Origin: Octopus vulgaris
Lineage: Eukaryota
Length of the DNA stretch: 64,000 nucleotides
Assembly (NCBI GenBank): GCA_951406725.2
Contig: OX597831.1
Span: forward strand, 11,470,001-11,534,000
Direction: 5' to 3'
Shown here: piece after piece, positions 2,793 through 61,660 of the stretch
Position numbering within the stretch: the first letter of the stretch is position 1
How the letters are laid out: each line of letters starts with the position of its first letter
Position numbers and translations under genes: made by a program
Notes under the pieces: model-generated
Seen by the model: only the letters and a program-made list of their open reading frames with translations
Databases searched by the model: none
Told to the model about the DNA's origin: nothing

Positions 2793-2839
2793 GACACCTG
2801 ATGAAGGCTGGAGGGTATATAAAGCCGAAACCTTGTGCT
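2793..2839 (+). ncRNA. Minimal type I hammerhead ribozyme motif (C3-G8) in the PLE pLTR
   Basis: CAC-CTGATGA-A-GGCT..AGCC-GAAA-CC-TT-GTG. The paralogous copy at 1861-1891 has GGCTG/CAGCC-GAAA-CG-TT-GTG but lacks CTGATGA. Confidence 0.75.
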
Positions 2840-3165
2840 AACAACAAACAAAATGAGGACAAATATCCGTCAAATGTAAATAATGTAAATAATGCAAGAA
2901 TAGTATTTACCTCGAAGGTTATTTACTAGTATCAAAAGATCAAATTATATATATCAAAAGACCAATTCCCTTCCATATATCTATCAAAGCCTTAACCCTT
3001 TGAGCCCTGAACCTTATTTGATCATATCCCGGTGTTACGGGATCAAAGAGTTAAATTTGTTCCAAGTTATTAAATTTGGAAATTTTGTAATAATGTTCCG
3101 TTCCTTTGGGACACATGCCAGCTGTCCCTTCAGCCTGTGTTTCGCCCTTTTGTTACTCTTCTTAA

Positions 3166-3204
3166 TTCTATCTGATGAAGGACCACTGTCCAAAACGTAA
3201 AGAA
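3166..3204 (+). ncRNA. Degenerate minimal hammerhead motif (C3-G8, G12A), probably from a second PLE-type 3' end
   Basis: TTCTaT-CTGATGA-A-GGAC-cact-GTCC-AAAA-CG-TA-AAGAA. Confidence 0.65.
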
Positions 3205-3512
3205 GCATGACTTTTATTTCTCAAGCTTTAAACACATATTGCGTTTGACAAAGAAGATCTGTGTGTCTATGTGTGTGCGTGTACGTATGTATATACAATG
3301 CATATATGTGAGCGTATGTAAGAATACACGTATTTGTATATGTACATACACACATAAACACACATACACACACATATGTAGATAAATATAGAAACGCATA
3401 CATGCATAAAAACATACATACATGCACACACACACACACACACACACAACTATATCAATGTTTTTTGCACATCGATTAGATATCATTATTTTAAACGCAA
3501 CTAATTGCTAGC

Positions 3513-3965
3513 TTGTTGTTGTTGTTGTTGTTGTTGTTCTTCTTCTTCTTCTTCTTCTTCTTCTTCTTCTTCTACTACTACTACTACTACTACTACTACT
3601 ACTACTACTTTTTCTTCTCCAACATCATCGCCATCGTCAACACTACCGCCAATACCATCGCTGCCCTCACCGCCACCACCACCACCATCACCACTAAAAC
3701 CGCCGTCACCACTTCCACCACCACCACCACCACCATCATCACCATCATCATCATCTGTTGTAGTAGCAGCAGCAGTAGTAGTAGCAGTAGCAGCAGTAGT
3801 AGTAGTAGTAGTAGTAGTAGTATTTGAGTATTAGTAGTAGCAGTAGTAGTAGCATTAGTAGTGGTAGTAGCATTAGTAGTAGTAGTAGTAGTAGTAGTAG
3901 TAGTAGTAGTAGTAGTAGTAGTAGTAGTAGTAGTAGTAGCAGCAGTAGCAGCGGTAGTAGTAGTA
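3513..3965. repeat. Compound trinucleotide microsatellite (GTT, CTT, CTA, CAC/CAT, TAG)
   Basis: Directly visible. Confidence 0.95.
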
Positions 3966-58711: not shown

Positions 58712-59380
58712 ATGGCTTCCCCCTCGTTATCGGGTATGGCCATTGCACGAAGCTTAACTGTTATTGGTGCTGTGATCGAATGTGACTTTTATTTGCTTTT
58801 TAAGGCTACAGCCAGCTATTCAGTTGAGACTCACAGCACTATCAACAATCATGAACAATGTTGCTATCGTGCAATGCCTGTGCAGGAAGATCTTTTTAAA
58901 GCGAGGAAAGGCTGTGCGCTGAGTCAATCAATTTCACTAAGCAACAGCAGCCATAATCCGAAAAGAAGAACAAGTCAACATCATCGGTAACCACTTAGCC
59001 GCAGGTTTTATGTCGGAGTTATCCCAGTTACATGAGTTACCTTCTCTTAGAAGGATGCCCTAACAAAGGCTAGGAGTCCTTCACTCCCAATGGTTTAACC
59101 GCGCGATCGGGCATTCAGTCCGATTATTTCTATGTCCCCGTGCATGATACAGCCTTAAGCCTTAAAATAAAATACACATTTATTAGATGGCAGTTGACTC
59201 TCAAGAGTTCCTCCGCCCTTTGACGGGTTTTGTTTTTCATACCGCAGGGTGTCCAATAAACACCCTCCTCACCAAGCAAGCAAGCTTGGTGGGGTTGCCG
59301 GTTTAGACGCCGACGGCCCGACCATGCAACAGGTTGTACTGGGTCACATGTTACCAGCAGCACACGAAAGTGACCTGACA
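58712..59380 (-). mobile_element. RTE-type LINE 5' UTR
   Basis: Minus strand TTAGGGCATCCTTCTAAGAGAAGGTAACTC..AAACC resembles RTE 5' UTR motifs as I recall them; the 5' end is homologous to 22060-22120. Confidence 0.55.
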
Positions 59381-60439
59381 TAATACATATATACATACAT
59401 ACATACATACATACATACATACATACATACATACATACATACATACATACATACATACATACATACATATATATATATATATATATATATATATATACAC
59501 AAACAGACAGATAGATAGATAAATATACATATATTTGTGTATCTTTCTTTATAAGACGTGCGTTCGACGTGATATACACGCATACACACAGCCATACAAA
59601 TACATTCATACATATACATACATACGCGCATGCATACATACATATCGTGTTGCTTCATAAATGTCTTAAATAAATCATGAACGTCCATCTTCCTTACCCT
59701 CTCATTTGCACAAACACACACACACATACATATATATACATATATATACATATATACATATATACATATATATATATATATGTTTGTGTATATGTATATG
59801 TATATATACACACACACACACACACACACACATACACACACACACATATATATATATATATATATGTATATATATATATATATATATATATATATATATA
59901 TATATACACATATATAGAGAGACTTACACACACATACAGACACACACACAAACACACACGTACATGTACAAGAATCAACAAGACCCATGGAAGATAGCAA
60001 ACGCATTCATTAATTGATTTTAATGGGTAGATTTCAACATTTACCCCACCGACACCAGCACCCACCCCCACAACCGCTACCCTCTATCCCTTAACCCCCA
60101 CCCCCATCCCCGCAGCAACAAGTAAATTATCTCCAACGAACGACAACAGTAGCAACAAAACGTCAACGGCCATAAAACCATTTTTTTTTTGTTTTGTTGT
60201 TTGTTTTTGCGAGACACGAGAAACCCCCGAAACTATTAAACGAGGACGTTGTTTCGTATCAGCCATTAAACACGATAACTACTCACGTTATCTTCTCTGC
60301 ATCCCCTTCCCCATTGTCACTGCTATCACCACGGCATGCTAACAAGGGAATGGGGGAGGCCCTTCGATGTGGACAAACGACAACCTGCTGGAAATAGCAG
60401 CTAAATCGTCATCCAGCAACGTCTTTGTTGATTTAGTAT

Positions 60440-60645
60440 TTTATTCTTTCACTTGTTTCTGTCATTTGACTGCGGCCATGCAGGGGCACCGCCTTTAGTA
60501 AAACAAATCGACCCCAGGACTTATTCTTTGTAAGCCTGGTACTTATCTTATCGGTCTCCTTTGCCGAACCGCTGGTCTACAGGGACGTAAACACGCCAAC
60601 ATCGGTTGTCAAGCGATGGTGGCGGGACAAACAGAGACACAAATA
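60440..60645 (-). mobile_element. SINE family A, 3' half (similar half copy at 56610-56838)
   Basis: Reverse-complement match. Confidence 0.85.
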
Positions 60646-61462
60646 CAGGCGAAATACGGCTACGCATTTCGCCCGGCGTGCTAACGTTTCTGCCAGCTGA
60701 GCGCTTCAAACCCCTATTTTCTCGATGAACTTCTTATGTATTTTGGACTCCCATGACAAAGGAACTTGACCTACGATAATCTGTCATCCATTTTGATTTT
60801 TGTTATATATATATATATATATATATATATATATATATATATATAATACTAAATTAGAGATAAAACCACTATTAGGCAAATCAAACAATGAAAAACTTAA
60901 GCCAATACATAAAATTAATTAATTTATATTATTTTAAATATATATCAAAAGTATTAAAAGTTTTATATATATATATATATATATATATATATATATATAG
61001 ATAGATAGATAGATAGATAGATAGATAGATAGATAGATAGATAGATAGGTAGATAGATAACAAAAATCAAAACTCGGAGTAGGTAAAACAGGGGACAGCT
61101 GATGGAAGGATTGTTCTTTATGTTGCCTGTCTCATTTCTCTATTTGTTTCTCTCGTTGTTCGAAAAACAGTTCGTTTTCTAAGTTTTTGTTTTTTTATAT
61201 TCTCGTTTTTCATTTTGTTCACGGTTTTTTGACGTCCTGTACCCATATATGCATGTATATATACATATATATGTAGGTATGTATATGTATGTATATTTGC
61301 ATATATATATATATATATATATATTATTTAGATATATATATGCATACACACAAACACACACACACACACACACACACACACACACACACACACACACACA
61401 CACACACACACATATATATATATATATATATATAGATATATATATATATATATATATATATA

Positions 61463-61660
61463 TGCAGCATGGAATTTTGTCTGTGAACAGATCGCGGTTT
61501 CAAAGCGACGAAAATATTTTGACACAAATTAAATTCAAACGTTGAAGTGAATCTAACGGTTTTGTGTTTTTAAATGACTTCTAAACACAATCCTCTCTGC
61601 AATTGTTTTTGTTTCCGCACACGATCTCAGATCAGGTCACTTGCTATGCAAGTACATCTC
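61463..61660 (+). mobile_element. (TA)n-flanked short element with a G3-C8 hammerhead variant at 61478-61524
   Basis: TGTCt-GTGAACA-G-aTCGC-ggtttcaaa-GCGAc-GAAA-ATAT-TT-tGACA. Confidence 0.7.

Follow-up and report, generated by a model that had tools for sequence, protein, structure and literature searches.

Minimal hammerhead motifs of the Penelope-like type with three different core pairs in repeats of Octopus vulgaris

The DNA considered here, called the window below, is a stretch of 64,000 nucleotides (C18:11470001-11534000, contig OX597831.1) of the 2.8-Gb genome of Octopus vulgaris, in which microsatellites and short repeats are abundant. It carries six motifs built like the minimal type I hammerhead ribozymes of Penelope-like elements (PLEs), and our subject is the nature of these motifs, the repeats that host them and the base pair between positions 3 and 8 of their cores. 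An earlier note on the same DNA had reported six hammerhead cores in at least five host repeats. All six were verified at their places, the minimal type I architecture was upheld, and five host families could be distinguished: A (core at 2798), C (3172), B (28860), G (53543 and 61483) and U (55390), where 53543(-) and 61483(+) are copies of one family with 86% identity over 201 nt.

Hammerhead motifs and their surroundings in the window

The motifs and the features that belong to them are listed below; pLTR stands for the pseudo-long terminal repeat of a PLE.

1235..1714 (+): open frame, 3' end of a family A element, with a GIY-YIG-like end recognised by eye and without a Pfam match
1303..3155 (+): tandem duplication of the family A 3' end (1303-2209 and 2211-3155, 93%)
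2212-2630 (+): second, broken copy of the family A frame
2794..2838 (+): minimal hammerhead motif of family A with C3:G8 core (2798-2804); the palindrome of this copy is damaged
3167..3204 (+): minimal hammerhead motif of family C with C3:G8 core (3172-3178); this copy has G12A
28856..28891 (+): family B motif, positions 4 and 8 decayed; in relatives C3:G8, position 4 being C or U
53361..53667: family G pLTR fragment and tail (53361-53566, -) with an inverted partial copy (about 53580-53667, +)
53500..53550 (-): family G motif, core 53537-53543, G3·G8 in this copy, G3:C8 in the family
55262..55412 (-): pLTR fragment of family U, solo
55356..55395 (-): motif of family U with U3:A8 core (55384-55390) and a stem I of 3 bp; this copy has A9G
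61463..61664 (+): pLTR fragment of family G with its tail, solo, adjoining a TA microsatellite
61476..61526 (+): motif of family G with G3:C8 core (61483-61489); this copy has G10.1A

All five families have one additional nucleotide separating position 9 from 10.1 and a stem II closed by G10.1-C11.1. Every window copy bears at least one lesion, as the earlier note had said. The palindrome of the 2798 copy is broken (ACCT), the 3172 copy has the G12A change, in the 28860 copy positions 4 and 8 have decayed, the 55384-90 copy carries G9 in place of its relatives' A9, and the 61483 copy combines G10.1A with one stem I change. The 3:8 pairs had been given as C-G, G-C and U-A; these hold as states of the families, whereas the copy at 53537-43 has a G3·G8 mismatch and its relatives G3:C8. 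Palindromes are likewise present in the place of stem III, in strict 15.1-16.1 forms shorter than those first listed, which had taken in A14 and H17, namely ACGT (A, B and C), AATATT (G) and AATT (U).

In the first copy of the family A duplication the core is lost, and a remnant lies at 1861-1895. Family A copies start at a segment that we take to be similar to tRNA A and B boxes (window 1745-1815 and 2660-2730), about 130 nt 5' of the hammerhead; ARAGORN called this tRNA-like head in 0 of 10 loci, and none came from Rfam either. On the minus strand, 3' of the U motif, a segment of 48 nt (55271-55318) has the intron-like ends GT...AG and a branch-like site; introns in the pLTRs of PLEs are known. 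Two kinds of Rfam match were rejected: MIR2670 at 53426-53664 (81.8 bits, cut-off 117) is a reflection of the inverted pLTR pair, and the mir-297-type matches in the window are microsatellites.

Families and core states across the genome

The families were followed through the genome with patterns whose anchors had to match exactly; positions 3 and 8 were left free for G, U and B, and the core states were counted by hand on the first 100 matches. Family G gave 6,024 matches, with G3:C8 in 95 of the first 100, family U 2,235 (U3:A8 in 94) and family B 219 (C3:G8 in 85). Reversed-pattern controls gave 0 matches for each of G, U, B and C. The pattern for family C had 24 exact matches, a number that is no test of the 3:8 state because the pattern itself required C3:G8. 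For family A the best 40 of 1,778 first-look candidates were scored and proved mostly canonical, and 17 of 19 parsed matches have the canonical core. These genome-wide counts bear out the proposal that covariation at 3:8 is fixed by family, as C3:G8, G3:C8 or U3:A8.

The members of family C differ much from one another. A DNA search with the 3172 copy returned no relative beyond itself, and the 24 matches to the structure-based pattern keep the core and the GGAC/GTCC stem, with variable loops and divergent flanks. Nearly every copy (window 3156-3250 and L328-L347, the L numbers denoting loci examined) has a loop and flanks of its own, and family C resembles in this the hypervariable sets noted by Cervera and de la Peña (2014, PMC4209133). 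Within family G, the G3·G8 state is common to several copies (window 53543; L002, L006, L016, L020, L122, L155 and L188), often together with one stem I change, which suggests that a small G lineage may have been copied despite its broken core pair.

An unbiased view was provided by 60 evenly chosen 10-kb stretches (600 kb), scanned with a descriptor in which positions 3 and 8 were free and the palindrome had at least 4 nt. This arbitrary sample contained 17 matches in 7 sequence groups, and all 17 form a Watson-Crick pair at 3:8 (10 C:G, 4 U:A and 3 G:C). Shuffled sequence gave a mean of 0.34 matches (at most 2, in 50 shuffles), with 7 of the 17 pooled shuffle matches paired at 3:8. When the scan was loosened to 2-nt palindromes and a 2-bp stem I, 7 matches were added, which are at chance level and mostly mispaired; five more sequence groups found in the flanks of the loci are paired at 3:8 too. 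The earlier note had warned that a search for CUGANGA alone would miss covariant cores; such a search is indeed blind to G and U and misses 7 of the 17 intact motifs of the sample, from which a rough extrapolation to the genome gives 80,000 intact motifs. A family with A3:U8 was not found: the pattern for it had 2,237 matches vs 2,730 for its control, and the sole repeat among these matches was rejected, as it is without stem II, palindrome and stem I. In the window itself the strict descriptor gave 0 matches and the descriptor with one error allowed gave 4, two of them belonging to the six motifs, vs a shuffle mean of 1.25 (at most 4, 20 shuffles); the window alone is not significant, since the one-error matches stay within the shuffle range.

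The commonest match of the scan, 8 of 17, is a B-like family (L276, L304, L313, L315, L318, L319, L323 and L326). In L206 the two arms of an inverted B pair differ, one carrying C4 and the other T4, which suggests that T4 may arise from C4 through CpG decay.

Host elements and layout of the copies

A PLE origin, which the earlier note had proposed, is shown by adjacent open reading frames (ORFs) for G, U and A, and an ORF-bearing parent was not found for B and C in the loci examined. The G and U motifs lie about 1 kb 3' of related frames for a reverse transcriptase (RT) and a GIY-YIG endonuclease. The sequence upstream of U copies leads through a CA/TA-rich untranslated region (UTR) to the RT end, a cysteine linker and GIY-YIG, and the G copies that retain their upstream part, of which there are 471 exact matches, follow the same path to UTR, RT end, linker and GIY-YIG. 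A protein search for the G-type ORF, in which the best 150 of 7,707 candidates were scored, returned many near-identical G copies, one of them with an open frame of 1,025 codons (L260). The G motif stands downstream of the GIY-YIG frame, on the ORF strand, in 26 of 30 ORF loci covered up to 1.5 kb from the match; among the longer stretches, this holds for 8 of 8. The eight long G copies are 98.3-99.3% identical over 1.7-2.0 kb, and family G is, as judged by its sequences, young.

The L260 frame has a YVDD motif and a CX3CX2C linker, both read from the translation, and matches Pfam GIY-YIG with 25.5 bits (cut-off 22.6). Pfam RT gave no match in this frame, and we call it an RT on two grounds, its YVDD motif and how its best database relative is named; this relative is an RT-domain-named Octopus vulgaris protein with 58% identity to G and 92% to a sister family. 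The single ORF with RT, CX2-5CXXC linker and C-terminal GIY-YIG that characterises endonuclease-bearing (EN+) PLEs is thus found in L260, and from the cysteine linker and RT motifs we presume G to be Neptune-like. In the endonuclease region U and G are 49-50% identical. There is a third sister PLE family (41-60% identical), with C3:G8, at the following loci:

L210 1866 (-); L267 8320 (+) and 6991 (-); L350 4029 (+); L118; L288: third sister family, C3:G8, mostly C9, imperfect palindrome

A further relative occurs in L110 and L217. Family A has a GIY-YIG-like frame upstream at two loci (the window and L072), without Pfam support.

Some neighbouring frames had to be set aside. The ORF near family B in L210 is a member of another family, and the ORF upstream of G in L149 and L182 belongs to a different element joined to the G 3' UTR and is not the usual parent; in L182 (7239-9250) this other RT and GIY-YIG element, its endonuclease shortened, is fused to the G 3' UTR and pLTR, as a chimera or a nested insertion. 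A 502-codon frame in L184 (7993-9498, -) is presumably cadherin- or protocadherin-like, going by its motifs.

Most copies of the families are short (about 150-280 nt) and ORF-less. Among 30 G loci 19 are solo, 11 inverted and 0 in direct tandem, and the 39 U loci divide into 30 solo, 9 inverted and 0 in direct tandem; same-strand neighbours were seen in 2 of 29 loci of A and 1 of 59 of B. G copies have two 3' ends about 60 nt apart, 49 of 92 ends having the full tail, 1 a partial tail and 42 none. The tail of about 60 nt compares with tails of 30-40 bp in PMC8557442. Insertion marks of PLEs are seen here: 5' truncation, an inverted 5' copy, an optional 3' tail and microsatellite neighbours. 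The 5' ends of short G copies form a sharp boundary some 25 nt upstream of the core (e.g., window 61463, L007 and L146), and 3 of the 52 copies with a readable 5' end extend into the parent. At 15 of these 52 ends a G takes the place of the parental C or T, as though reverse transcription had copied a capped RNA, and the parent sequence upstream of the G 5' ends resembles a 3' splice site. The contigs of four runs that span the motif (the runs are not on record as RNA, and ends, strand and level are not readable from them) contain no intron-like or circular joint.

Fold, selection and the place of the octopus motifs among known systems

The minimum-energy structure of a young G copy consists of exactly stems I and II (z -3.6). 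The U copy and the 53543 copy of the window fold with z of about -2, and the other four window copies fold no better than shuffles. Among the G subfamilies loop 2 is variable and stem II is kept. Stem II reads GUCAC/GUGAC in the third sister family (C3:G8), GUCGC/GCGAC in G and GUUGC/GCAAC in U, and since these sequences compensate, two stem II pairs covary along with 3:8.

That the motifs are minimal hammerheads of the PLE type is nearly certain. It is quite likely, moreover, that they are decayed minimal type I hammerheads of which at least three of the five families are the 3' pLTRs of PLEs, that related families have fixed C3:G8, G3:C8 or U3:A8, and that self-cleavage has probably been under long-term selection. 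The C-G, U-A or G-C core pair specific to each family suggests that a predicted self-cutting activity was kept by selection, and for family G we regard selected catalysis as probable. Transcripts would start inside the pLTR, a short distance upstream of stem I; we place the start there because few G copies (3 of 52) run into the parent. Stems I and II would fold in the monomer and the missing helix III would be supplied by two pairing palindromes, either of two pLTRs or of two RNAs; because the palindrome duplexes are weak, the element protein probably helps this pairing. Cleavage after U17 would trim or release the element RNA at some stage, and uncut RNA would serve as the template for insertion, since genomic copies keep the motif whole. 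Mismatched intermediates may be copied for a while, because each insertion needs no cleavage, and this would let the G3:C8 state, two transversions away, arise.

Several observations weigh against selected cleavage or against the identification itself. The same-strand pLTR-ORF-pLTR layout is seen in 0 of 8 long G copies, all apparently 5'-truncated, and this bears on dimers formed in cis because they need that layout. The palindrome duplex is predicted at -0.2 kcal/mol in G and at +2.2 kcal/mol in U, where stem I has 3 bp and the palindrome is AU-only and 4 nt long. Core changes expected to hurt activity occur in some amplified lineages: C4 is found in about 44 of the first 100 matches of family B and in 6 of 8 copies of the B-like family of the scan, C9 in five of the six rows listed for distinct loci and strands of the third sister family, apart from one A9 copy, and G3·G8 in 1 of the first 100 G matches. 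Rfam hammerhead families had 0 matches at the gathering threshold in 6 loci, none at E values of 10 or less within 1600-3260 of the window, and none among the matches listed for the window (150 of 463). Families B and C are without a parent ORF in the loci examined. Finally, the covariation rests on a handful of independent events, because the copies within a family share descent.

An alternative that we consider unlikely is that descendants of PLE hammerheads have retained the fold for a role other than catalysis, such as protein binding or dimerisation, and that G3:C8 and U3:A8 cut poorly or not at all. In its favour, the anole element inserts without cleavage, and no RNA-seq ends were seen at its cut site (PMC11167929); Naiad PLEs do well with no hammerhead (PMC8557442); the motif stands uncut in genomic copies, and amplified lineages include some with C4, C9 or G3·G8. 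Against such a role stands the 3:8 pair itself, a tertiary contact of the catalytic core which is Watson-Crick in three forms across the families, and G5, A6, GAAA and the UH site are retained together with this pairing.

A second alternative, for which we see very little room, takes the repeats for retrozyme-like non-autonomous elements that make circular RNAs from short tandem repeats, and the earlier note had indeed spoken of retrozyme-like short families. The prevalence of short, ORF-less copies and the missing parents of B and C would agree with it, and the octopus motifs share with the invertebrate retrozymes of Cervera and de la Peña (2020, PMC7229834) that they lie in short, high-copy hammerhead repeats. 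The retrozymes described there have canonical type I hammerheads in head-to-tail repeats without an ORF, whereas in G, U and A the hammerhead is of the minimal form, the copies lie solo or inverted, and there are ORF-bearing parents. For G and U the claim fails: they are 3' pLTR fragments of such elements, direct tandem occurs in 0 of 69 loci (0/30 G, 0/39 U), the head-to-tail arrangement of 150-450 bp non-autonomous units that marks animal non-LTR retrozymes is absent from them, and inverted 5' ends with an optional 60-nt tail are insertion marks of PLEs. A family from outside the window, with a minimal U3:A8 motif and an ACGCGT palindrome (L348 1949(-), 2091(+) and 2453(+); L349 4763(-) and 5096(+)), forms in L348 a 362-nt head-to-tail unit with an inverted copy, two copies of which are predicted to co-fold as a double hammerhead; this tandem family does look retrozyme-like.

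The reading as chance look-alikes seen by a flexible eye in an AT-rich, repeat-rich genome is refuted at the family level and hardly deserves any weight, for although the window alone fails to beat shuffles and look-alikes do exist, because the loose A3:U8 pattern caught an unrelated stemless repeat, arbitrary DNA has 17 matches vs 0.34, every one paired, and the motifs keep a fixed position behind RT and GIY-YIG frames and show compensatory stem II changes.

Minimal type I hammerheads of metazoan PLEs were defined in PMC4209133, where U3:A8 is described for Schistosoma with about 1,300 hits. The octopus motifs share with them the short stem I, the extra nucleotide 9/10.1, G10.1-C11.1, the palindrome for helix III, the pLTR site, the mostly solo occurrence, the inverted pairs and the many families per genome. 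The 56 representatives of Fig. S3 of that paper include no G3 and no cephalopod, whereas octopus G is a young G3:C8 family of about 6,000 copies; a further difference from what is described there is that three core states occur here in related elements of one genome. Natural U3:A8 covariation was also described by Perreault et al. (2011, PMC3088659), who cite U4C as a variant that occurs naturally in viroids and has little activity in vitro; no natural G3:C8 is listed in the sections covered of that paper, and family G has it. The novelty of covariant cores in the earlier note was therefore overstated with regard to U3:A8, already reported in schistosome PLE hammerheads, and may stand for G3:C8, which is possibly unreported: no natural G3:C8 family was found in the literature searched, which did not cover Lünse et al. 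2017, and no study of octopus PLE hammerheads was found in the literature searched.

The closest functional comparison is PAc (Poseidon, Anolis; Frangieh et al. 2024, PMC11167929), also a PLE with a pLTR hammerhead, whose optional 3' tail comes from two reverse-transcription start sites and matches the two 3' ends of G. In that system C3G or G8C kills cleavage and the double change partly restores it, cleavage needs protein, and insertion is independent of cleavage. The G3:C8 pair is thus an engineered mutant in PAc and the natural state in octopus G. PAc is Poseidon-type, whereas G and U carry the cysteine linker of Neptune/Nematis-type elements. The octopus motifs are of a known kind. One natural variant among them, G3:C8, is possibly unreported and belongs to a young family of high copy number; going by the sequences, the related elements form a three-state core series within one genome.

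It can be doubted whether PLE hammerheads matter to the element: their cleavage is weak in vitro and dispensable for insertion in the one reconstituted system, and the motif is missing from some clades. The 3:8 pair kept in three forms, together with the compensatory changes in stem II, argues for a selected catalytic fold and provides natural test pairs. G3:C8 is two transversions away from either of the other states, and published assays found the single changes inactive. Descriptors fixed on CUGANGA overlook many intact motifs (7/17 in the sample). It is quite possible, if somewhat short of an even chance, that the octopus harbours a young autonomous PLE family of about 6,000 copies with a natural, active G3:C8 hammerhead, a core so far unreported, which together with its C3:G8 and U3:A8 sisters would amount to a rescue experiment made by nature, in which the catalysis of PLE hammerheads turns out to be selected although a single insertion can do without it.

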